A stretch of DNA of 64,000 nt from an uncultured Planctomycetales bacterium (GTDB lineage Bacteria; Planctomycetota; Phycisphaerae; UBA1845; PWPN01), in assembly GCA_964653435.1 (NCBI GenBank), contig CAZZFA010000013.1, positions 7,407 to 71,406 on the forward strand. The letters are read 5' to 3'. A program made the position numbers and the translations under genes. The notes below the pieces were generated by a model. The model was not told the origin of the DNA. It ran no database searches and saw only the letters and a list, made by a program, of their open reading frames with translations. Position 1 is the stretch's first letter. Each line of letters starts with the position of its first letter. Shown in pieces: positions 8,590 to 63,941 of this stretch.

Positions 8590-8660
8590 GTCGGCATATG
8601 GAACTGCTCTGGTGCGGGCAGTCGCGCGTTGATTAATCCAGCCATGTGAGGAACGACCGT

Positions 8661-11051
8661 ATGGTAATGCCGCTGCGACGATCCGGTGCGTGGCCTTGGG
8701 CGATGGTGGCGGTGTTGGCTGCCGGCTCGGCAGCAGAAGGGGCGCAGGGGCTTGTCAGCGCGACCGGGGATAACGAGTGCGGTCAGCTCGGTACCGGAGA
8801 CGCACCGTGGTTTCCGCGGCAGACATTGATCGCCGGGCAGGTGACCGCGATCGCGAGGGGCGGGGCGCATGGCGTCGCGCTCACGTCGGACCGGAGGTTG
8901 TGGGCGTGGGGAAACAACATGTACGGCCAGTTGGGCGACGGGACGACGACGAATCGCGCGACGCCCGTTGCGGTCTCGGTCCTGTCGAGTGTGATCGCGG
9001 TCGCGGGGGGCTACTATCACAATCTCGCGATCCAGTCGAATGGGATGGTGTGGGCGTGGGGTCGCAACGAATACGGCCAGTTGGGCGACGGGACGCGGTC
9101 GAATCGCGCGACGCCCGTTGCGGTTTCGACTCCGGCGGGCGTGATCGCGGTTGCGGCCGGTGGCCAGCACAGCCTCGCGCTGAAGTCGGACGGGACGGTG
9201 TGGGCGTGGGGAAACAACTACTATGGCCAGTTGGGCGATGGGACAACGACGATAGATCGCCCGACGCCCGCGGCGGTCTCCGGCCTGACGGGCGGAATCG
9301 CGATCGCGGGCGGGTTGTATCACAGCCTCGCGCTGAAGTCGGACGGGACGGTATGGGCGTGGGGATGGAATCACGGCGGCCTGTTGGGTGATGGGACGAC
9401 GACGGAGCGCTGGACGCCCGTTGCGGTCTCGGGCCTGACGGGAGTGATCGCCATTGCGGCGGGCGGCTTCCACAGCCTCGCGCTGAAGTCGGACGGGACG
9501 GTGTGGGCGTGGGGAAGCAACTACTACGGTCAGTTGGGCGATGGGACGACGACGGAGCGCTGGACGCCCGTTGCGGTCTCGGGCCTGACGGGTGTGGTCG
9601 CAGTGGCTGCGGGCGAGTATCACAGCCTCGCCGTGAAGTCGGACGGGACGGTGTGGGCGTGGGGTTACAATAACCATGCCCAGTTGGGCGATGGGACGAT
9701 CACGACTCGCATGGGGCCCGTGGCCGTTTCCGGTCTGACCGACGTGATCGCGGTAGCGGCAGGCGTTTGGCACAGCTTCGCGCTCAAGTCGGACGGGACG
9801 GTGTGGGCGTGGGGATGGAACCGCGACGGCCGGTTGGGTGACGGGACCACAGAGACGATTCGTTCAGTGGCCGTACTTGTGCCAGGCCTCAGCGGCCTGA
9901 TCGCGGTGGCCGCGGGCGCGACTGACAGCCTCGCGATCAGATCGGACCAGACAGTGTGGGCGTGGGGAGACAACGGCTACGGCCAGTTGGGCGACGGCAC
10001 CACGACTTCGCGCTCGGCGCCGGTCGCTGTCTCCGGCCTGACGGGCGTGACCGCGGTGGCGGCGAGCGGGTATCACAGGCTCGCGCTCAGATCGGACCAG
10101 ACGGTGTGGGCGTGGGGAGGCAACGGCTACGGCCAGTTGGGCGACGGCACCACGACTTCGCGCTCGGCGCCAGTCGCGGTCTCGGGCCTGACGGGTGTGA
10201 TCGCGGTGGCGGTGGGCGAGTATCACAGCCTCGCCGTGATGTCGGACGGCACGGTGTGGGCGTGGGGATGGAACTCCTACGGCCAGTTGGGCGATGGGAC
10301 GACAACGGATCGCGCGACGCCTGTTGCGGTTACGGGTCTGACCGACGTGATCGCGGTCGCGGCCGGCGTGGGTCACAGTCTCGCGCTCAAGTCGGATGGG
10401 ACGGTGTGGGCGTGGGGGTGGAACTACTACGGCCAGTTGGGCAACGGGAGGACGAATCGTTTGACGCCGGCTGCGGTCTCCAACCTCGCAGGTGCGATCG
10501 CGGTGGCGGCGGGTTGGTATCACAGCCTGGCCGTGAAGTCGGACGGGACGGTACGGGCCTGGGGACGCAACGACTTCGGCCAGTTGGGCGACGGGACGGG
10601 GGCGAATAGCCTGGTGCCCGTTGCGGTTTCGGGCTTGACGGGCGTGACCGCAGTGGCGGCGGGCCCGTATCACAGCCTCGCGTGCAAGTCAGACGGGACG
10701 GCATGGGCGTGGGGGCAGAACTCCTCGGGCCAGTTGGGCGACGGGACGACGACGGGTCGCTTCACGCCCGTTGCGGTCTCGGGTCTGACCGGCGTGACTG
10801 GGGTTGCGGCGGGCCAAGGCCACAGTCTCTTCCTGCGGGCGTCGTCCTTTGGAGATTTCGACATGGACGGCGACGTGGACCTGGAGGATTTCGACGTGTT
10901 CCGGGGCTGTTGGAACGGGCCGAACCGTCCGCCGCTCGGCTCGGGCTGCGAGGACGCCGACGCCGACGGCGATGCGGACGTGGACGTGGCGGACTTCCTG
11001 AAGTTTCAGGGTTGTTTCAACGGCCCGGACCGGCCGGCCAAGTGCCCGTAG
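8661..11051 (+). CDS. Secreted RCC1-repeat protein (14 repeats) with C-terminal dockerin-like double Ca-binding module
   Basis: Signal-peptide-like N-terminus; 14 copies of the (V)WAWGxNxxGQLGDG core; C-terminus GDFDMDGDVDLEDF..CWNGPNRPP...DADADGDADVDVADF..FQGCFNGP. Confidence 0.92.
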   Translation: MVMPLRRSGAWPWAMVAVLAAGSAAEGAQGLVSATGDNECGQLGTGDAPWFPRQTLIAGQVTAIARGGAHGVALTSDRRLWAWGNNMYGQLGDGTTTNRATPVAVSVLSSVIAVAGGYYHNLAIQSNGMVWAWGRNEYGQLGDGTRSNRATPVAVSTPAGVIAVAAGGQHSLALKSDGTVWAWGNNYYGQLGDGTTTIDRPTPAAVSGLTGGIAIAGGLYHSLALKSDGTVWAWGWNHGGLLGDGTTTERWTPVAVSGLTGVIAIAAGGFHSLALKSDGTVWAWGSNYYGQLGDGTTTERWTPVAVSGLTGVVAVAAGEYHSLAVKSDGTVWAWGYNNHAQLGDGTITTRMGPVAVSGLTDVIAVAAGVWHSFALKSDGTVWAWGWNRDGRLGDGTTETIRSVAVLVPGLSGLIAVAAGATDSLAIRSDQTVWAWGDNGYGQLGDGTTTSRSAPVAVSGLTGVTAVAASGYHRLALRSDQTVWAWGGNGYGQLGDGTTTSRSAPVAVSGLTGVIAVAVGEYHSLAVMSDGTVWAWGWNSYGQLGDGTTTDRATPVAVTGLTDVIAVAAGVGHSLALKSDGTVWAWGWNYYGQLGNGRTNRLTPAAVSNLAGAIAVAAGWYHSLAVKSDGTVRAWGRNDFGQLGDGTGANSLVPVAVSGLTGVTAVAAGPYHSLACKSDGTAWAWGQNSSGQLGDGTTTGRFTPVAVSGLTGVTGVAAGQGHSLFLRASSFGDFDMDGDVDLEDFDVFRGCWNGPNRPPLGSGCEDADADGDADVDVADFLKFQGCFNGPDRPAKCP

Positions 11052-31250: not shown

Positions 31251-33437
31251 ATGGGGCGATTCGGAGGCGCGCGTGGGTTGCGGGAGCCGCTCGACGTGGG
31301 CAAGGCTCACGTCACAAAGCGGCAAATTCGTGAGCGGCGCCCGTCGGTCGCGGGCGGCGTGAGGGGCGTCACGCAAGGCAAGCTGAAGGGCCGCCGGCCC
31401 GCGCGGGATGCGCTTGTCGCAACGCTGACGGCGCTGGCGGTGGTGGCGAGCCCGGCTCGCAGTCTCGCCGTCGATGCTATCAGTGTCGAACTGGTGGGCC
31501 AGTACGGCGGGATCAGCTACGCCGTGGCGGTCGAAGATGACCGCGCTTATCTGGGCGCGGGGCCGCGGTTAGTCATCCTGGACGTCGCGAGTCCGGCGGT
31601 TCCGCGCGTGCTCGCATGGAGCGAGACGCTTCCGGCGATCGTTCGTGGCGTGGCGGTTGCTGGCGGCTATGCGTATGTCGCGGACGACGCTGCCGGCCTT
31701 CAGGTCGTCCAGGTTTCGAATCCGGTCTCTCCTGTCCGCGTGGGGAGCTGCGCAACGGGCGGACTGGCTCTCGGCGTTGCAGTATGCGGCAATTATGCGT
31801 ACGTCTGTGATTACTACCTTGGTCTACTCGTTATCGACGTCTCGAATCCGAGCTTGCCCGTCCGCGTCGGTGGGTACAATACGCCGGGGCGCCCGCGGGG
31901 CGTGGCGGTTGCCGGCCGGTACGCCTATGTTGCCGCCTATACCGGTGGCTTCCAAGTGATCGACATCTCGAATCCTGCGGCGCCGACCCTCGCGGGCGGT
32001 TGCGGGACGACGGGGTATACCTATGACGTGGCCGTCGCCGGGGCCTATGCATACGTAGCCTGTTCTGACGCAGGCATCGATGTGATCGACATATCTGACC
32101 CAGCCTCGCCCGTCCGCGTGGGTGGCTACAGCACGGGGCGGCAAGCGCTGGGTGTCACCGTGTCCGGCACAACCCTGTATGTGGCGGCCAATGACGGGGG
32201 CCTGCAAGTGATCGATATATCCAATCCCGCCTCGCCGGTTTGGCTCGGCGGCTGTGCCACAGGAAGCTACGCTCATGATGTCGCCGTGGTTGGTCTTTAT
32301 GCGTACGTAGCCAGTCACGACCTCGGCGTGCAGGTGATCGACGTCTCGAACCCCGTTTCACCGGCGCGCGTGGGCGAGTACGACGCAACCGGCTATTCTT
32401 TCGACGTCGCCGTCCGCGGCACTTATGCATATCTGGCCGATTGTCATTTCGGCCTGCAGGTCATCGATATGTCGAGCCCCGCCTCGCCCGTTCGTGCGGG
32501 CGGCTACGACACGAGCGGTTGCGCGCGGGGCCTGACCCTTTCGGGCACCTACGCGTATGTGGCCGATGTGGAAGCCGGCCTGCAAGTGATCGACATTTCA
32601 AATCCGGTTGCACCGTTCCGGGCGGGCGTCTGCGACACCTCGGGCTCCGCGTACGGCGTGGCCGTCGTCGGGGGCTATGCATATGTGGCGGACGGCGAAG
32701 CCGGCCTCCAGGTCATCGACGTCTCAAACCCTGCTTCGCCATTTCGCGTGGGCGGCTGCGATACACCCGGGTTTGCGCACGGCGTAGCCGTATCCGGAGG
32801 CTATGCCTTTGTGGCTGACCGGCAAGCCGGTCTGCACGTCATTGACATCTCTGATCCCCGCTCACCGGTTCGCGTGGCCGGCTACCCGAACGACGCCGGC
32901 GGATCCGCCTATGACGTGGCAACCCAGGGGCACTACGTATACGTTGCCGACGGACCGGCCGGCGTGCAGATTCTTGACGTTTCCGATCCGCCCTCGCTGA
33001 TGTGGGTGGCAACCTGCGACACCAGCGGGATCGCTCAACAAGTGGCGTTGTCGGGCAACACGGCGTGTGTGGCCGATGACGACGACTTCCGGGTCCTCGA
33101 TATCTCAGACCCGGCCTCGCCGCGCGTCGTGGGCGGCTACGACAAAAACAAGTGGGCTATGGGCGTGGCAATGGCCGGCAACTATGCTTATGTAGCGTAC
33201 AGCCAGGGCGGCCTGGTGATCCTGCACCTGGGATACGCCGATCTGGACAAAGACGGAGACGCCGACGTGAAGGACTTTGCCCTCTTCCAGGACTGCTTCA
33301 ATGGTCCGAATGCTCGCCCACGTGCGAGTCATTGCACAGGCGCCGACTTCGATGCGGACGGCGACGTGGACCTTCAGGACTTCTCGGTGTTCGAGGCCTG
33401 TTTCAACGGTCCGAATCGTCCACCGGCGTGTCGATAA
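31251..33437 (+). CDS. Secreted LVIVD-repeat protein (about 14 repeats) with C-terminal dockerin-like module
   Basis: Repeats of GxYAYVADxxxGLQVIDISNPxSPxxVG; C-terminus ADLDKDGDADVKDF..FQDCFNGP...ADFDADGDVDLQDF..FEACFNGPNRPPAC. Confidence 0.92.
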   Translation: MGRFGGARGLREPLDVGKAHVTKRQIRERRPSVAGGVRGVTQGKLKGRRPARDALVATLTALAVVASPARSLAVDAISVELVGQYGGISYAVAVEDDRAYLGAGPRLVILDVASPAVPRVLAWSETLPAIVRGVAVAGGYAYVADDAAGLQVVQVSNPVSPVRVGSCATGGLALGVAVCGNYAYVCDYYLGLLVIDVSNPSLPVRVGGYNTPGRPRGVAVAGRYAYVAAYTGGFQVIDISNPAAPTLAGGCGTTGYTYDVAVAGAYAYVACSDAGIDVIDISDPASPVRVGGYSTGRQALGVTVSGTTLYVAANDGGLQVIDISNPASPVWLGGCATGSYAHDVAVVGLYAYVASHDLGVQVIDVSNPVSPARVGEYDATGYSFDVAVRGTYAYLADCHFGLQVIDMSSPASPVRAGGYDTSGCARGLTLSGTYAYVADVEAGLQVIDISNPVAPFRAGVCDTSGSAYGVAVVGGYAYVADGEAGLQVIDVSNPASPFRVGGCDTPGFAHGVAVSGGYAFVADRQAGLHVIDISDPRSPVRVAGYPNDAGGSAYDVATQGHYVYVADGPAGVQILDVSDPPSLMWVATCDTSGIAQQVALSGNTACVADDDDFRVLDISDPASPRVVGGYDKNKWAMGVAMAGNYAYVAYSQGGLVILHLGYADLDKDGDADVKDFALFQDCFNGPNARPRASHCTGADFDADGDVDLQDFSVFEACFNGPNRPPACR

Positions 33438-54986: not shown

Positions 54987-55268
54987 GGTGGGTAATTACC
55001 CCACCGGGCAGTCCGGCAGCGCCGCTCGCTGGGGGGACGGAGCGAAAACGATTTGAGGGAACCGCGGCAGCGGCGAGTGTGGCGCTGGCAGCACCCACAT
55101 CTCCCAGACGGTTCGTGAAACGTTTATTTGAGGAAGCGCGATCGAGGCAGCCGATCGTCCGTGCCGGGCGTGTCGGCGGCTGACCGGGTTTTTTCGGCTG
55201 GGTGTCATTGTGGGAACTGTGCCGGCGGGCCCGTTGCGGGTGTCCGGCGGAACGAAAGGAGCTTTTCG

Positions 55269-56594
55269 ATGAGAACGTCGGTACGAAACGCGGTGATCGT
55301 GAGTGCGCTCGCGTTCGCGACAGTGCTGTCGAGCGGCGCTTGGGCGCTGCCTTTATCACAGGTCTTCTTCCCTGAGGCAAACCGCCTTATCGGGGACCCG
55401 CGCCGGGGGACGGACGAGATTTATCAGGGTGTTGCCTATAGGAACCCGGACAACATCATCAATGGCACGCCGACAGTGCCCGGTCAGGTTCCCGGCCAGA
55501 TCGAGTCGCTTCGCAATGTCGGTATCGGGTACACGGGGATCAATATCCCGCAACCCTGTGATGTTACGGGAGTGCCGGCGGATCCGCGAAGCGTGTTGGG
55601 GTCGAACCCCGCGGAGGTATTGGCAGGCGCGAATCCACTGGTGAGCAACACGTGGGGTGTCCGTGCCGGTGCGGCCGTCCAGTGGCAGACCGACCAGGAT
55701 GGTTCTGCCGTGTCCCTGACGCCCCTGGGCGTCAACAGCGGGCAGGCCTACAACATTACTCCGGGCACATTGTTCTCCGTGGCGTTCGGCCTGAATCCTG
55801 CCGGCGTGCCGACAATCGTATCGCCCGTCGACGTCGGCGGCGCGCCGGGGTCGGTCGGCGGCGACGGCCTTGCCGATTTCGTCCCGTGGGTGCGTGATCT
55901 CGCGAATCCGAATCAGTTGGTCACCGGGTTCGGGATCAATGGTCTGGACCGGGCGGCCATTGACGGGTACTTTGCCGCGCTGGGTCCGAATGCCTTCGGC
56001 GTGGGCGTCACTCCCGCGCAGGTTTACGCGGCCCTGATTGCCCGCGTCGATGTGTGGGAAGGCGGGGCGCTGTTCGATCAGGTCGCCGGTTCGTTCGACG
56101 CGAGGAACTTCAACCACAACGGTGGGACGAACGGGATGGCGGGTGACGAGCTCAACGACGCGGTCGACGGCACACTCCTGCTCAGCGGTGAGCTTTCCAA
56201 TATCCAGATCCAGAACTACTGGACGGCCCAGATTCTTCTCGACGGCCAGGGTCGGCCGGTCCTCAACAACGGGCAGTTCGTAGCCGTGCCCGGTACCGTC
56301 AAGCGGACGATCAAGATCGTGGCCGATGTCACATACGACGGCGGGACGCTGCTGCATTGGCTCACGAATACTCACGGCGTGATCAGCGCCAACTACAACG
56401 GAATCCCGTTTGCGAACGTCGACACGGTGACGCAGGGAACCCATGCGAATATCGCGGCTTACGACTTTGTTGGCGACCGGACGACGTCGTACGACGCTTC
56501 GCAGACGTTCCAGGCGATTCCCGAGCCGCTGACGATGCTTTCGGGCGTTCTGGCGATCGGGGCGCTGGGTGGCTACATCCGCCGTCGGCGATGA
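55269..56594 (+). CDS. Secreted PEP-CTERM protein with ~400-aa unknown domain
   Basis: AAGGAG RBS; signal peptide; C-terminus IPEPLTMLSGVLAIGALGGYIRRRR (PEP, TM helix, Arg cluster). Confidence 0.9.
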   Translation: MRTSVRNAVIVSALAFATVLSSGAWALPLSQVFFPEANRLIGDPRRGTDEIYQGVAYRNPDNIINGTPTVPGQVPGQIESLRNVGIGYTGINIPQPCDVTGVPADPRSVLGSNPAEVLAGANPLVSNTWGVRAGAAVQWQTDQDGSAVSLTPLGVNSGQAYNITPGTLFSVAFGLNPAGVPTIVSPVDVGGAPGSVGGDGLADFVPWVRDLANPNQLVTGFGINGLDRAAIDGYFAALGPNAFGVGVTPAQVYAALIARVDVWEGGALFDQVAGSFDARNFNHNGGTNGMAGDELNDAVDGTLLLSGELSNIQIQNYWTAQILLDGQGRPVLNNGQFVAVPGTVKRTIKIVADVTYDGGTLLHWLTNTHGVISANYNGIPFANVDTVTQGTHANIAAYDFVGDRTTSYDASQTFQAIPEPLTMLSGVLAIGALGGYIRRRR

Positions 56595-58910: not shown

Positions 58911-59337
58911 TCCGATAATACCGCGTGCCCTTGACTGCCTTGTCCCTCGCCGGCATGGTACGGGGGATCCGGCACGGTCAAGATTCCTCCCGACCGGGTG
59001 TTCCCCCGAGAATCATTTTATTGAAATTCGCTGTTTTTTTGTTGAACACGAAGAGGTCTCCAGGCTTAGAATATGGCTGAAGCGGGCGTCTCGCATCGCG
59101 TCGTCGAAGGGGCCTATCGGCGTGGTACGGCGCGTGAGTCGCCGCGCAAGCGAGCGTGGTCGGGCAGCAACCACAACGGGTCTTTTTCGGGGTCGGATTG
59201 TCGGTGGCAGGCAACAGGGCTTGCGGCTGACGGAGTGACCGTGAGCGCGTCGGCGGTTCCGCGCGGCGCGCTCGATGCCGGTCCAGGTGTCGGGGCCGTC
59301 ACCCAGAGTGCGGCCCACGGAACAAAGGAGCTGCTTC

Positions 59338-61713
59338 ATGCCATCCGTGACTCGGAGTGTGGTTCTGAGCGTTGCGGCGGTTGCGATGCTTGCTGCTGCA
59401 GCCGCAGCCGAGACGTGTCCCTTCTACTGGTTCGCGGGGGACAGTAACCGGCTGATCGGCGATCCTCGTCGGGGGACGGACGAGATCTACATCAACTCGG
59501 CCGGTACGTACCTGACCCCGGCGAACATCAAGAACGGCGTGCCGGTCGGCATCGGTCAGGTGCCCGGTCAGATCGAATCGCTGCGTGCCGGCGGCGGGGG
59601 GTACGTGGGTGTCAACGTCCCGCAGCCGTGCGACGTGTCCGGCGTGCCGGCGGATGGGCGGGCGGGCCTGGTTAATCCGATTCCGCCTCTTCCGGCAACC
59701 TACGGTGTGCCCGGCCGGATGTGGGGTGTGCGGGCCGGTGTCGCGGTTCAGTGGCAGACGGTCCAGGACGGCGCATCGCGGCTGCTGAATCCGCTCGGAA
59801 TGGTCAGCGGGCAAGCCTACCGGATAACGCCTGCCACGTTGTTCTCTGTAGCGTTCGGCATGGATCCCGGTGGGGCCGTGACGATCGTTACGCCCGCCGA
59901 CGCAGGCGGCGCGCCCGGATCGGCAGTCGGCGACGGCATCGCGGACTTCCTTGGCTGGGTGCGGAATCTGAACAACCCCGGCCAGTTGATCACGGGCTAC
60001 GGGATCAAGGCGTGGGATCGGGCCATGATCGACGGCTACTTTGCGGCCGACCCGGATGCCTTCGGGGTCGGCGTTACGCCGGCGCAGGTTCATTCGGCGC
60101 TCACTGCCCGCGTCGACGTGTGGTGCGGCGGCGAACTCTTCGATCCGGTCACGGGGGTGTTCGACGCGCGGAACTTCAATCACAACGGTGGAACGTATGC
60201 ACAGCCGGGCGACGAACTCAACGATGCGGTGGACGGCGCGCTACTTCTGACGGGCGAACTCTCGAACATCCAGATCCAGAACGTCTGGACCGCGCAGATC
60301 CTGCTCGATGCGAGGGGGAACCCCGTTTTGGCGAATGGCCAGTTTGTAGCCGTGCCCGGCACGGTCCGGCGGACGATCAAGGCGCAGGGCGATATCCGTT
60401 GGGACGGCGGCTCGCTTTTTGGTTCCCTTGCCAATGCGAACGGCGTCTTCAGCGTCAACTGGAACGACATCCCATTTACGAATGTAGACACGGCTACCAA
60501 CGGCACCCACGCTGTAGTGACGGCCTATGACTTCGTGGGCGATGCGATCACGTCCTACGATGCGTCGGTGACGTTTGAGCTGGCCCGGTGCAAGCTGGAG
60601 GTCAGCAAGACCTGCGAGCCGTCGTACAAGCGGACGTGGGATTGGGACATTACCAAGGAGTGCACGCCTTCGTCGTTGCGTCTGTCGCCGGGAGAGAGCT
60701 ATCCGATCGACGTCGCGATCAAGGTCTGCGAGAAGGGCTACACCGACAGCGACTTCGCCGTGAGCGGCAAGATCACGGTCAAGAACCCCTGCTCCGATGA
60801 CGCGGTGATCGAGGGCATCTCCGACATCGTGTCGCCCGACATCGCAGCCACCGTCACCGAGTGCGACGGCAGCCCGGCCGTGTTCCCGTTCACCCTCCCG
60901 GCGGGGCAGACGCACGAGTGGTGCTATCACGCCGCCTTGCCGGATAAGTCCACCCGCACGAACACGGCCACCGTCACCACCACCGCCGACAGCGCCGTTG
61001 ACGGCAACGTGAGCGATCCGTGCACGATCGATTTCACCAACGTCCCGCCAGCGGACGAGATCGATGAGTGCGTCACCGTTTCGGACGAGCATTGTGTCAC
61101 TACTCCGGTAGAGATATGCGTCGGTGATACTGACCTGGTCAACGGGTGCAAGTCGTTCACGTGTCAGATCCCGGTTACCTGCGAAAACGCTCCGGAGTTC
61201 ACCGACACGGCCACGCTTGTTACGAACGACAGGAGGATTACCAGCACGGCGACGTGCGGCGTCTCCATCGAGTGCGGCGGCGGCTGCACGCTCACCTGGG
61301 GCTACTGGAAGACCCACTCCATCTACGGGCCGGCGGCGCATCCGGATGCGACGTGGTACAAACTCGGCCCGCTCGGGCCGGACACGCCCTTTTTCATCAG
61401 CGGCCAGACGTATTACCAGGTGCTCCAGACCTCCCCGGCGGGCGGCAACGCGTACTATATCCTGGCCCACCAGTACATCGCGGCCCAGCTCAACCAGTTG
61501 GCCGGGGCCCCGATACCCGCGGATGTGCTCGATGCGTTCAACAAGGCCACCAAGCTGTTCCAGACGTACACGCCCGCGGACCTGAACAAGAAGGGCGGCT
61601 CGGCGTCGAAGATGCGCGCCGTGTTTATCGGCTACGCCGGGCTACTGGGCAGCTATAACGAGGGGCTTGTCGGTCCGGGCCATTGTGACAAGCCGGCAGT
61701 TCCCGAGACGTAG
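59338..61713 (+). CDS. Secreted multidomain protein: same unknown domain as 55269-56594, Cys/Thr-rich beta-sandwich region and GCTLTWGYWKTH domain
   Basis: AAGGAG RBS; signal peptide; long identical runs with the PEP-CTERM paralogue (NRLIGDPRRGTDEIY, FDARNFNHNGGT, GELSNIQIQN); ends in TAG. Confidence 0.88.
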   Translation: MPSVTRSVVLSVAAVAMLAAAAAAETCPFYWFAGDSNRLIGDPRRGTDEIYINSAGTYLTPANIKNGVPVGIGQVPGQIESLRAGGGGYVGVNVPQPCDVSGVPADGRAGLVNPIPPLPATYGVPGRMWGVRAGVAVQWQTVQDGASRLLNPLGMVSGQAYRITPATLFSVAFGMDPGGAVTIVTPADAGGAPGSAVGDGIADFLGWVRNLNNPGQLITGYGIKAWDRAMIDGYFAADPDAFGVGVTPAQVHSALTARVDVWCGGELFDPVTGVFDARNFNHNGGTYAQPGDELNDAVDGALLLTGELSNIQIQNVWTAQILLDARGNPVLANGQFVAVPGTVRRTIKAQGDIRWDGGSLFGSLANANGVFSVNWNDIPFTNVDTATNGTHAVVTAYDFVGDAITSYDASVTFELARCKLEVSKTCEPSYKRTWDWDITKECTPSSLRLSPGESYPIDVAIKVCEKGYTDSDFAVSGKITVKNPCSDDAVIEGISDIVSPDIAATVTECDGSPAVFPFTLPAGQTHEWCYHAALPDKSTRTNTATVTTTADSAVDGNVSDPCTIDFTNVPPADEIDECVTVSDEHCVTTPVEICVGDTDLVNGCKSFTCQIPVTCENAPEFTDTATLVTNDRRITSTATCGVSIECGGGCTLTWGYWKTHSIYGPAAHPDATWYKLGPLGPDTPFFISGQTYYQVLQTSPAGGNAYYILAHQYIAAQLNQLAGAPIPADVLDAFNKATKLFQTYTPADLNKKGGSASKMRAVFIGYAGLLGSYNEGLVGPGHCDKPAVPET

Positions 61714-61980
61714 GCGGCTTCGGCTGTGGCGCTGGCCGCGGACCCCGCCGCGGAGGACCTGCCGGCGGATGTGGGCGGCCCGGACTTCGATCTCAGCGGC
61801 AGCGTCGACATCCGCGACTTCATGCACTTCCAGGACTGCTTTGCCGGGCCAAATCGCGTTCCAGCCTCGGGGTGCCGCGATTCGGACGTGGACGGCGACG
61901 GCGACGTGGACATGATGGACTTCGCCGTGTTCCAGGCGTGTTTCAACGGGCCGAACCGCCTGCCGCAGTGCCGGGCCTGA
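61714..61980 (+). other. Orphan dockerin-like module reading in frame immediately after the TAG of the preceding gene (readthrough extension or truncated tail)
   Basis: ...CCC GAG ACG TAG GCG GCT TCG... stays in frame for 88 codons to TGA 61978-61980 and encodes DFDLSGSVDIRDF..FQDCFAGPNR...DSDVDGDGDVDMMDF..FQACFNGPNRLPQC. No RBS or signal peptide of its own. Confidence 0.8.
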
Positions 61981-62061
61981 GCCAGCCCGGTCTCTGACGG
62001 CTTCCGCAGAGCACCGCGAGCGGATTGCCGGGAGCCTGTTACAGGCGACCTGAATAACGAA

Positions 62062-62110
62062 AGGGCGAGCCTCGCATCCGGTTGCGAATCGGCGGATGCG
62101 GGCTCGCCCT
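62062..62110. terminator. Long hairpin between convergent genes (likely bidirectional terminator)
   Basis: AGGGCGAGCC-T-CGCATCCG pairs with CGGATGCG-GGCTCGCCCT (18 bp, one bulge); U-rich tail on the minus strand. Confidence 0.72.
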
Positions 62111-62285
62111 GACGTTGTCGGGGCAGGCCCTGCGGCGAACGCCTCAGCCCCCGTTGCACCCGGCCGTGCAAACTCGCGTTACGAACTTCCTTGCACGCCG
62201 GTGACGACCAGGTGCCAATCCGCGTTTGTTCCACGCGCCGTCGGCAGTTGGGCCGCCGGATCGCCGGTCCCGGTGGGGCGCTGCG

Positions 62286-63941
62286 TCACCGCTCGGCCTG
62301 CAGGATCTGGCCGTCTGCCCGAAGACGCTCCTGGAGCGTTTCGAGGCTGACGCGGTGCACCGGCACCGAGGCGCTGGCCGCCAGGGCCGCCGCCACGCCC
62401 GCGCTGTGGCCGACGATCATGTAGTTCGGCTCCATGCGGAATGATGCGTACGCCACCGTGGACGCGGAGAGGCACACGGGCACGAGCAGGTTCGAACACT
62501 CGGAGTATCGGGGCAGGATCGCACGATACGGAATGTCCCACGGCTCGACCGGCTGACTCACGTAGCCTTCCATGAACGTCTCATCCTGTGCGTTCGGGAA
62601 GCGGAACGTACGCACTGAAACCCACTGTACTTCGCGGATGTCGATGTTGTACCCGGCCATCCCGATCACGTCGTGCTTACGTCGCCGTTGCTGCAGGTCG
62701 TGTTGCGTGAGGACGTATTCGCCGAGCATGCGCCGCGCCTCGCGCACGTAGAGCTGATGCGGCCAGCCGCCGGTATCCTGGAATTCGTCCTTGCACAGGC
62801 CCCACGGTGCGCAGGCGGCGCGGATCTCCTCCGGCACGGCCGGGTCGTTCTGAAGGAAGAACATCAGCCCGTGCGCCCAGCTCCGATGTTCCTCCCGGAT
62901 CTGCGCCCGCCGTTCGGGCGTCGCCTCGGGGTACTCCTGATTCGCACCGGGGAGATTCAGCGAGACCGCGCCGCTGCTGTTGGCGTCGCACTTTCCGTTC
63001 GGGATTCGCGCAAATCCCACCGGGCCACGGATTGGCTCGCCCGTGCGGTGTCGCACCGCAAGAAGATAACGCCGCAGCAGCTCATATCGGGCCGGGTCGT
63101 AGTCCTTCGGCCGTGTGATCGGCACGCGGTTCTCGGCTCGATCGGTCAGGCACAGCCGAAAACAATATGCCTGCAACCGCCCATCGCCGGTGCCCACCGG
63201 CACGAGCTTTTCCTGCGGGGTGACATATGGCAGCAATGCGCCGTCGCGCCACGGCGAGACCCCCACGACAAACTGATGGTGGCCCGGCAACAGCTCGCGG
63301 CGACCGGCGAGGGACTCATCGTATCGATCGCGTCCCTCCCGCCCGATGGTGTACGAGACGCCGGCGGCTTTCAGAAGGTCGCCTTCGTATGTGGCGTCGA
63401 TGAACACCCGCGCGCTGTATGTTGCCCCATCCCGCATCCGCAGTATACGCAGACACGTCCCGTCCACCTCGGCCGCCGCGAGCGATTGGCCGAAACGCAG
63501 TTCCACGCCCGCCTCCTGGAGCATTGTCCGGAAGACGTCTTCGGCCACGTGGGGTTCGCACGCCCAGGATATGGCCTGTCCATAGTGCCGCCCGATCCGC
63601 GTGAAGAACTCGAGTGTCAGCCCGCCGATGAGATCCTTCTGGCGGTCCACGTCGAAGCGGCCAAGCCCGCCGGACACCATCCCGCCGATGTGTCGTCCCG
63701 GTTCCAACAGGATCACCGAAGCCCCATGCCGCGCCGCCGCGATTCCGGCCATCGCGCCCGCCGCAGTACCTCCGTACACGACGACGTCCCGATCGATCGC
63801 CGCAGCGTGGAGGGGTGCCGGCGAGCTGCAGAGTGTGACGAACAGCACCACGGCGGCGAGCGTCCGCCGACCGCTGGAAACAAGACGGCCGCCGCGAAGC
63901 CAACGATGCTTGGGACGCGTGGCGGCGTGGGCACTGGACAT
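62286..63941 (-). CDS. Secreted FAD-dependent oxidoreductase (FAD_oxidored / xanthan-lyase-associated type)
   Basis: DVVVYGGTAAGAMAGIAAAR, HIGGMVSGGLG, FIDATYEGDL, LYVREARRM, NLLVPVCLSASTVAYASFRMEP. Confidence 0.88.
   Translation of the reverse strand: MSSAHAATRPKHRWLRGGRLVSSGRRTLAAVVLFVTLCSSPAPLHAAAIDRDVVVYGGTAAGAMAGIAAARHGASVILLEPGRHIGGMVSGGLGRFDVDRQKDLIGGLTLEFFTRIGRHYGQAISWACEPHVAEDVFRTMLQEAGVELRFGQSLAAAEVDGTCLRILRMRDGATYSARVFIDATYEGDLLKAAGVSYTIGREGRDRYDESLAGRRELLPGHHQFVVGVSPWRDGALLPYVTPQEKLVPVGTGDGRLQAYCFRLCLTDRAENRVPITRPKDYDPARYELLRRYLLAVRHRTGEPIRGPVGFARIPNGKCDANSSGAVSLNLPGANQEYPEATPERRAQIREEHRSWAHGLMFFLQNDPAVPEEIRAACAPWGLCKDEFQDTGGWPHQLYVREARRMLGEYVLTQHDLQQRRRKHDVIGMAGYNIDIREVQWVSVRTFRFPNAQDETFMEGYVSQPVEPWDIPYRAILPRYSECSNLLVPVCLSASTVAYASFRMEPNYMIVGHSAGVAAALAASASVPVHRVSLETLQERLRADGQILQAER

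Follow-up and report, generated by a model that had tools for sequence, protein, structure and literature searches.

Truncating mutations in inlA of Listeria monocytogenes remove its LPXTG anchor, and in nature intact alleles are found alongside truncated ones. Premature-stop-codon alleles of inlA are described in PMC5131979. The locus reported here is like inlA in that a presumed C-terminal anchoring tail has been lost from a secreted protein by independent truncations, at different positions, in close relatives. The truncation followed up here takes only the tail and leaves the conserved body whole, and by analogy with inlA it is predicted to release the protein. Unlike inlA, the anchor would be a dockerin-like module and not a sortase signal, and the locus belongs to uncultured Phycisphaerae and is known from sequence alone.

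A second comparison is with programmed readthrough, as in phage Q-beta, whose A1 coat extension is made through a leaky UGA. Our locus likewise has one in-frame stop ahead of a C-terminal extension in the same frame, and no terminator separates the two. In true programmed readthrough, to our knowledge, relatives share both the conserved stop and the conserved extension. The stop reported here is private: a sense codon takes its place in relatives, and other stop-bearing relatives have lost or degraded the extension.

The locus also resembles the choice-of-anchor families of NCBIfam/TIGRFAMs (e.g., TIGR04312), in which one body carries varied tails. Across taxa, the body studied here has no tail, a T9SS domain, a transmembrane (TM)-plus-basic tail, or a dockerin-like module. 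However, it matches no named choice-of-anchor, Pfam, or NCBIfam model. Its dockerin-like tail shares duplicated Ca-loop/helix segments and an above-threshold Dockerin_1 match with the type I dockerin of cellulosomes, but it differs in having four conserved Cys residues and a GPN motif, and its cohesin binding is putative. Alongside the cellulosomal dockerin, we considered the hypothesized planctomycete "planctosome." For freshwater Planctomycetes, cohesin and dockerin modules without a role in cellulose use are on record (PMC6461901).

We analyzed a 64-kb stretch of DNA, called the window throughout. Our main reading, to which we give a probability of about 0.7, is that a TAG codon in this locus arose recently, by a nonsense mutation restricted to this strain, and is an instance of ordinary recurrent tail loss and not of programmed readthrough. 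The relevant features are as follows.

10854..11045, + strand: paralogous dockerin-like module at the C terminus of the RCC1-repeat protein 8646..11051 (by similarity)
33228..33434, + strand: paralogous dockerin-like module at the C terminus of the LVIVD/choice-of-anchor B protein 31251..33437 (by similarity)
55128..56594, + strand: paralogue matching the body's N-terminal half, with a PEP-CTERM-like tail, a different anchor (by similarity; P0004 ends ...PEPLTMASGILALCGLGGYAQRRRLRGA)
59275, + strand: in-frame ATG 5' of the CDS start, a mechanical ORF start
59338..61713, + strand: CDS for the secreted protein in its truncated form, 791 aa and then TAG (gene call P0001 and the orthologues all begin MPSVTRS)
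59338..59409, + strand: probable Sec signal peptide, MPSVTRSVVLSVAAVAMLAAAAAA|E (by sequence inspection only)
61285..61689, + strand: conserved domain at the C terminus of the body (CTLTWGYWKTH...YYILAHQY...GPGHCD), from homologues; the native end in most family members
61690..61710, + strand: seven linker codons that are still translated (KPAVPET)
61711..61713, + strand: amber stop, C>A at 61712, ancestral codon TCG (Ser), from the aligned codon in L001/L002, L003, and L004
61714..61782, + strand: remaining Ala/Pro/Asp linker, 23 codons, 3' of the stop
61726..61980, + strand: 84-aa GTG ORF over the remnant (P0021, automatic annotation), no signal peptide
61783..61980, + strand: dockerin-like module, 65 codons plus the original stop TGA 61978-61980, now an untranslated remnant (Dockerin_1 match)
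62062..62110, + strand: strong conserved hairpin 3' of the original stop, likely the transcript end, no T-run (-48.5 kcal/mol, z -7.4)

An earlier note had described a single in-frame amber codon separating a secreted protein from an intact module, with a linker of about 23 aa leading to a complete module that ends at TGA 61980. Both statements hold. The TAG at 61711-61713 closes an ORF that starts at 59275 or 59338, and the frame beyond it reads AASAVALAADPAAEDLPADVGGP (23 codons) and then the 65-codon module up to its TGA. An open stretch of these 88 codons, linker and module in the same frame, has an estimated chance of occurrence of ~0.12 at 66% GC and is weak evidence by itself. However, the same-frame dockerin match and the fused orthologues described below mark the region past the TAG as a former coding continuation.

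The 88-aa tail matched Pfam Dockerin_1 (PF00404) over residues 24 to 72 with an E value of 9.8e-6; its 26.1 bits exceed the gathering score, 22.9. It missed the cutoff for the GC-type dockerin (NCBIfam NF041540), scoring 20.3 bits versus 29. By inspection, it has two tandem Ca loop/helix segments, DFDLSGSVDIRDF and DSDVDGDGDVDMMDF, in which the loop pattern D-x-D-x-(D/S)-G-x-V-D-x-x-D-F is seen twice, and four Cys residues; both loops and all four Cys are thus present, as the note had said. The two paralogous copies in the window keep this pattern and are 58 to 59% identical to the module in amino acid sequence. As also claimed, each is a C-terminal fusion, the ORFs 8646..11051 and 31251..33437 both ending in the module. 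Searching with the tail alone gave only five matches, mostly contig-edge fragments. The dockerin-like tail presumably anchors the secreted protein.

Most homologues of the body (~160 fetched loci, from many phyla) stop at GPGHC[SD]E, and this is also the usual end in the wider family, which includes Thermus, Lysobacter, and Chloroflexota. Others have lineage-specific appended tails: Mariniphaga, for instance, has a T9SS Por_Secre_tail domain that scores above threshold, and L021 has a TM-plus-RRR tail. Therefore, the body is complete without a tail. The window TAG lies seven codons past GPGHCD, the native C terminus of most homologues, so the truncated product retains the whole conserved body. 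Neither the body nor its conserved C-terminal domain matched a Pfam or NCBIfam family, and a search of the PDB returned no relative of the body, only noise at an E value of ~0.05. The paralogue at 55128..56594 matched PEP-CTERM with an E value of 0.039, below threshold. Judging from the sequences compared, the C-terminal anchoring tail is evolutionarily labile, having been gained in one small Phycisphaerae clade and then, always at this linker, disabled at least three times.

The orthologue check that the note had proposed showed that the TAG is not conserved and that relatives have the sense codon TCG. In L001/L002 and L003 (~82% identity), TCG (Ser) occupies the aligned codon within one fused 895-aa protein, and the products P0002/P0017/P0019 (895 aa) and P0003 have body, linker, and module in one ORF. 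The closest relative, L004 (body dS 0.27), also has TCG at this codon. The TAG is therefore private to one strain. L004 has its own stop, a GAG>TAG change two codons 5' of the window's TAG position, and it lacks the equivalent of window positions 61732-62114, which hold the module and the hairpin. In L005-L009, from five samples, a net 72-nt linker deletion places a TGA directly after GPGHCD; the tail beyond it has an altered first Ca loop and a fifth Cys. The alignments show at least three independent tail-disabling events (TCG>TAG in the window, GAG>TAG plus deletion in L004, and the deletion-made TGA in L005-L009), and these three all fall within the first eight linker codons after GPGHCD. 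A common origin of the window and L004 TAGs was considered and rejected because a gapped alignment would require two 6-nt indels, whereas the ungapped alignment fits the outgroups at each codon, with TCG GCG kept. Scans of metagenomes and genomes found no further strains of the lineage to which the window belongs. Only four members make up the 90% cluster, and the single additional contig, HOW18599.1, stops short of the junction.

In the window tail, we counted four synonymous and three nonsynonymous derived changes, compared with 109 and 90 in the body; the changes are few and come from one strain. The tail shows no decay, which suggests that the mutation is young. Assuming that the tail came free of constraint as soon as the stop appeared, the TAG would be no older than ~25% of the window-specific branch and far younger than the split from L004. 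The tail of the TGA clade (L005-L009) has seven nonsynonymous derived changes and one synonymous. These counts fit neutrality, with an omega of 0.18 rejected (p 0.0085) and a Fisher comparison with the bodies giving p ~0.03, but they rest on eight substitutions, and recombination probably brought in the block where these lie. The tail of this clade thus appears to drift in a neutral-like manner.

On the main reading, the young nonsense mutation acted as follows. C>A at 61712 would have turned TCG (Ser) into TAG in the flexible linker between the conserved body and the accessory module. Translation would then end seven residues past the family's native end, and a complete body would be made without its tail, presumably to be released and not docked. 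The rest of the linker and the module would be an untranslated remnant, too recent to have decayed. The truncated form is probably functional and free, and clean loss of the tail at the linker is probably tolerated or favored. A recent nonsense mutation was one of the alternatives listed in the note, and it is the one favored by the TCG codons in relatives, the three independent disabling events, the neutral-like drift or deletion of the tail in the other stop-bearing lineages, and the native C terminus of the wider family.

The same mutation might not be neutral. Tail loss could be repeatedly selected, or anchored and released alleles could form a balanced polymorphism shuffled by recombination, a switch at the level of the population and not of translation. 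We consider this possible but unlikely. It would fit three independent truncations that all lie in the eight codons next to GPGHCD, although the dispensable stretch spans ~100 codons, but the lineages are few and the window event was ascertained because of its linker position. The TGA allele occurs in five samples. Furthermore, the fused L003 nests among the TGA alleles by body sequence (dS 0.013-0.038), whereas its junction and tail block differs from theirs by a dS of 0.225, ~17 times the body divergence, and L009 is a recombinant inside the tail. However, the divergent block may reflect a single introgression. A broader version of this idea, which we find improbable, makes the linker a selected toggle. 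Populations of these Phycisphaerae would keep anchored and released alleles because clean stops recur in the first linker codons, a single base change can reverse them, and the tail block recombines; low-level readthrough of the linker stop might add a small docked fraction. If so, the ratio of free to docked protein would be an evolvable trait.

The TAG might also be an artefact of sequencing or assembly, or the consensus might have fixed a minority variant, the true population having TCG and the fused protein. The codon is one base away from the ancestral one, metagenome-assembled genomes are population consensuses, and the mosaic tracts indicate mixed, recombining populations in a related clade. 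The Logan assembly SRR12976788 (L010) is identical to the window over 2710 nt including the TAG, but the two TAG-bearing assemblies, being 100% identical, may share reads. Even so, two different assemblers (NCBI MAG and Logan contig) agree on the base. Illumina-type consensus substitution errors are rare, and other lineages and samples demonstrably have real truncating alleles of the same linker. We regard an artefact as improbable too.

The main claim of the note was that readthrough, programmed or leaky, yields a free and a docked isoform, with most ribosomes stopping at the TAG and a regulated fraction continuing. The in-frame, intact tail with its 4:3 ratio of changes is compatible with this, and for one strain it is expected equally from a young mutation and from selection through readthrough. 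No terminator or hairpin lies ahead of the module end, the TGA clade also retains an in-frame module past its stop, and the clustering of the three truncations in the first linker codons could be read in the same way. However, the note had named a sense codon in relatives as grounds for refuting readthrough, and TCG does stand at this codon in three lineages of orthologues. The three stops vary in position and type, and the stop-bearing relatives have either deleted the tail (L004) or let it drift in a neutral-like manner. Folding of 61705-61800, past the TAG, gave a z of +0.81, not unusually structured, which is weak evidence given that bacterial readthrough signals are poorly defined. No Rfam family matched in the window, and we rejected an RNA element at the TAG on these two grounds. 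As the note had stated, TAG is a normal stop here, closing seven other long, high-GC3 ORFs in the window. There is no tRNA gene, and so no suppressor tRNA, in the window; on this evidence from the window, global TAG recoding and pyrrolysine were set aside as unlikely. Selected or programmed readthrough is thus very unlikely. The candidacy for recoding fails, and the locus is not a bacterial programmed-readthrough case to pursue.

Two smaller suggestions also found no support. The TAG site has no repeat on which a phase switch of the slippage type could be based. The likeness of VPET*AASAVALAA to a decayed VPEP-TM tail is not supported: with Ser restored, there was no PEP-CTERM match at E<=10. 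We rejected a PEP-CTERM signal (PF07589) at the junction, which has no basic cluster; the orthologous linkers are unrelated in sequence and have no PEP motif.

The terminator-like hairpin that the note had placed at 62062-62110 is real (z -7.4), but a simple terminator scan does not flag it because it has no T-run. It is kept in L001, L003, and L005 and deleted in L004. The module was also said to have neither a ribosome-binding site nor a signal peptide. The second part is correct, but the first holds only loosely: a weak AGGCGG lies 8 nt 5' of GTG 61726. A scan that is weak for Planctomycetota found no sigma-70-like site in 61300-62400 that could serve as the module's own promoter. Separate synthesis of the module, by re-initiation at the in-frame GTG 61726, 13 nt past the TAG, to give a free 84-aa dockerin peptide, has this weak site and an ORF annotated by gene callers in its favor, but it is hardly credible: the product would have no signal peptide, though four Cys and Ca loops are typical of an extracytoplasmic domain, the GTG is not kept as a start in fused orthologues, and in the relatives whose contigs permit a check the module is either fused at the C terminus or left as a remnant past a stop.

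Automatic annotation has made two genes of what was one: the 791-aa protein and an 84-aa "dockerin" ORF that is spurious. Read as a young nonsense mutation, the locus shows cleanly how an anchor module turns over in nature and is a possible way into the role of planctomycete dockerin-like tails. A neighboring gene in the window encodes a choice-of-anchor B protein with the same dockerin-like tail.

The 791-residue protein begins with a signal-peptide-like stretch and is terminated by an amber codon. The frame then stays open for another 88 codons, comprising a 23-codon Ala/Pro/Asp linker and a 65-codon module. The relevant features of the window are as follows.

59275/59338..61713, + strand: truncated protein ORF, 791 aa (start 59338 as in the database and orthologues)
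61285-61689: conserved C-terminal domain, about 135 aa, shared with loci L013-L170 (C-T-L-T-x-G-Y-W-K-T-H ... YYILAHQY ... GPGHC)
61711-61713, + strand: amber stop TAG, ending the 791-aa ORF
61978-61980, + strand: TGA ending the downstream frame, which is that of the 791-aa ORF
62286-63941, - strand: convergent downstream gene, FAD-dependent oxidoreductase (PF12831, E 1.6e-100)
8646..11051: RCC1-repeat protein with a paralogous module fused at its C-terminus
31251..33437: LVIVD/choice-of-anchor B protein with a paralogous module fused at its C-terminus

The 88-residue tail scored above threshold against Pfam Dockerin_1 (26.1 bits; gathering score, 22.9; E 9.8e-6) and below threshold against the NCBIfam GC-type dockerin model (20.3; cut-off, 29). 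The two paralogous modules are 58-59% identical to the tail module and have the same four Cys. ORF translation, the Dockerin_1 score, and these copies bear out the earlier note's description of the stop, linker, and module, and both copies are C-terminal fusions, as it had said. Dockerin and cohesin modules unconnected with cellulose have been reported from Planctomycetes (PMC6461901).

Few relatives turned up in a protein search. An 895-aa orthologue (P0002, 82% identity) and a fragment reaching the same end (P0003) read body, linker, and dockerin as a single protein, and the 90% clusters also included truncated forms with differing end residues. We aligned the junction in the DNA of all relatives found by the protein search and in the 90% clusters.

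Junction codons in the window and in related loci
Window: CCC GAG ACG TAG GCG GCT; TAG in linker, tail intact and in frame
L001/L002: CCC GGG ATG TCG GCG AAT; fused
L003: CCC GAC ATG TCG GCG GAT; fused
L004: CCC TAG GCG TCG GCG GCT; different TAG, module deleted

The window's TAG codon is TCG (Ser) in three other lineages (L001/L002, L003, and L004), a single C>A change at position 61712. In the closest relative, L004 (body dS 0.27), an independent GAG>TAG change lies two codons upstream, and the segment matching window 61732-62114 (the entire module plus a hairpin) is missing. In L005-L009, from five different samples (the TGA clade), a net 72-nt linker deletion puts TGA directly after GPGHCD, the end of the conserved body. 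Their module is still in frame, with its first loop changed to DFNLSASVEICDL and an extra Cys. The tail has thus been disabled independently at least three times, and neither the position nor the type of the stop is conserved. Both amber mutations, window 61712 (C>A) and L004:7101 (G>T), are G:C>T:A transversions. Such transversions are typical of oxidative guanine damage, but two events are too few for a firmer statement.

Metagenome and genome collections were scanned with the last 187 body residues, yielding about 160 loci spread over many phyla (Thermus, Lysobacter, Chloroflexota, Actinomycetes, and Bacteroidota among others). Extended to a stop, the majority of homologues terminate at ...GPGHC[SD]E. 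The others have lineage-specific tails: a T9SS sorting domain in Bacteroidota (above threshold in Mariniphaga sediminis), TM-plus-RRR in L021, and short charged tails in other Phycisphaerae. Therefore, the dockerin-like tail is an accessory, clade-specific putative anchor. The window's predicted product ends seven residues past the family's native end, with its conserved body entire. The domain of about 135 aa is widespread and well conserved across the taxa named, and it had no match in Pfam, NCBIfam, or PDB.

Between the window and L003, omega was 0.17 in the body (dS 0.56) and 0.12 in the tail (dS 0.61). Therefore, the tail was under constraint as coding sequence through most of its past. 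Derived changes, polarised by parsimony, were 4 synonymous and 3 non-synonymous in the window's tail (body, 109 and 90), and this tail shows no decay. If constraint on it ended when the stop appeared, the age of the stop would be at most about one quarter of the window-specific branch (P[<=3 non-synonymous] = 0.05), far less than that of the split from L004, which agrees with TCG in L004. The TGA clade's tail has 1 synonymous and 7 non-synonymous changes, differing from the bodies (Fisher p about 0.03); this is compatible with neutrality and rejects omega 0.18 (p 0.0085). So in the one lineage whose linker stop is old enough to show an effect, the tail acts as untranslated DNA. In a second lineage, L004, it is absent.

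We consider the feature real and its mechanism ordinary, the TAG being a nonsense mutation that is both recent and private (probability about 0.7). The C>A change would have turned a linker Ser codon into a stop, detaching the module from the secreted protein, and truncation would be tolerated with the body complete and the tail accessory. The earlier note had listed this option beneath a headline of readthrough; TCG in three lineages, and a tail that is deleted or neutral-like in the other stop-bearing relatives, favour the option, not the headline. The closest analogue, in its anchor loss, is the premature stop codons of Listeria inlA, a gene whose truncated and intact alleles are found side by side in nature (PMC5131979).

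Compatible with a nonsense mutation, and tentatively entertained, is that tail loss was selected or balanced. All three truncations lie in the first eight codons past GPGHCD, out of about 100 codons that are dispensable, which hints, suggestively only, that losing the tail cleanly at the linker is tolerated or preferred to breaks in the Cys-rich module. However, the lineages are few, and the window case came to notice through its position. By body sequence, fused L003 nests among TGA alleles (dS 0.013-0.038), whereas in the junction and tail block its divergence from them is about 17-fold higher (dS 0.225); L009 shows recombination within the tail, and there are mosaic tracts in the body as well. 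Thus, fused and truncated alleles appear to coexist and recombine in that species-level population. Sharp clustered-substitution tracts mark otherwise near-identical genes (L003, L005, L006, L008, and L009; alignment columns 520-544 and 792-859), and L001 and L003 differ more in the tail (dS 0.81) than in the body (0.30). Both patterns point to recombination or gene conversion centred on the tail. Downstream, the L001 and L005 lineages have a class II aminoacyl-tRNA synthetase gene instead of the oxidoreductase and L004 has the window's flank; therefore, the 3' flank varies by clade.

A read-level artefact or polymorphism at 61712 is improbable, and single-contig lesions in these MAGs call for read support. 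Apparent frameshifts split the body in other assemblies of this gene, P0012/P0014 (JGI contig, 10097 nt) and P0009/P0010 (HOW18599.1/HOW18600.1), where FQTYTPADL appears as FRRTRRPT and the N-terminal fragment is GIGRDLPGALDQGV; indels from assembly or sequencing are the probable cause.

Functional readthrough is very unlikely: it is defined by a stop and a constrained extension that are conserved together, whereas this stop is private to the window, other stops differ in position and type, and the tail is neutral-like or deleted in the other stop-bearing lineages. TAG is a normal stop here, as had been claimed, since seven other long, high-GC3 window ORFs end in it. ARAGORN found no tRNA and Rfam nothing in the window, and folding of the 96 nt that follow the TAG is no more stable than that of shuffled sequences (z +0.81). 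The supposed VPEP-TM-like (PEP-CTERM) flank was rejected for want of profile support. No sigma-70-like promoter was found in 61300-62400, and the 84-aa ORF from GTG 61726 called by gene callers (P0021) has no signal peptide and is best regarded as an artefact of annotating a split gene. The hairpin noted after the module is strong (62062-62110; z -7.4), lies 3' of the original stop, and is kept in fused relatives, as expected for the end of an ancestral fused gene.

A similar Cys-containing dockerin-like tail follows thrombospondin-type and Ig-like repeats in an unrelated protein (L172; GCA_041890195.1, contig JBEEQD010123123.1). Its in-frame TGA (L172:1185-1187) falls exactly at the position of a Trp conserved in the preceding repeat (SHQ*RKGG versus GYRWRKGG); a TGG>TGA nonsense mutation, an error, or the use of UGA for Trp by that organism might explain it.

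The N-terminal ~440 aa (59338-60600) has a paralogue two genes upstream (55128-56594), in which a PEP-CTERM-like tail replaces the Cys-rich middle, GYWKTH domain, and dockerin. One module thus has two different tails, giving two anchors in one locus, and the gene's architecture follows the logic of "choice-of-anchor" secreted protein families. Synteny of this pair, together with the hexapeptide-transferase and GT2/GT21 genes between them, extends to L001, L004, and L005.
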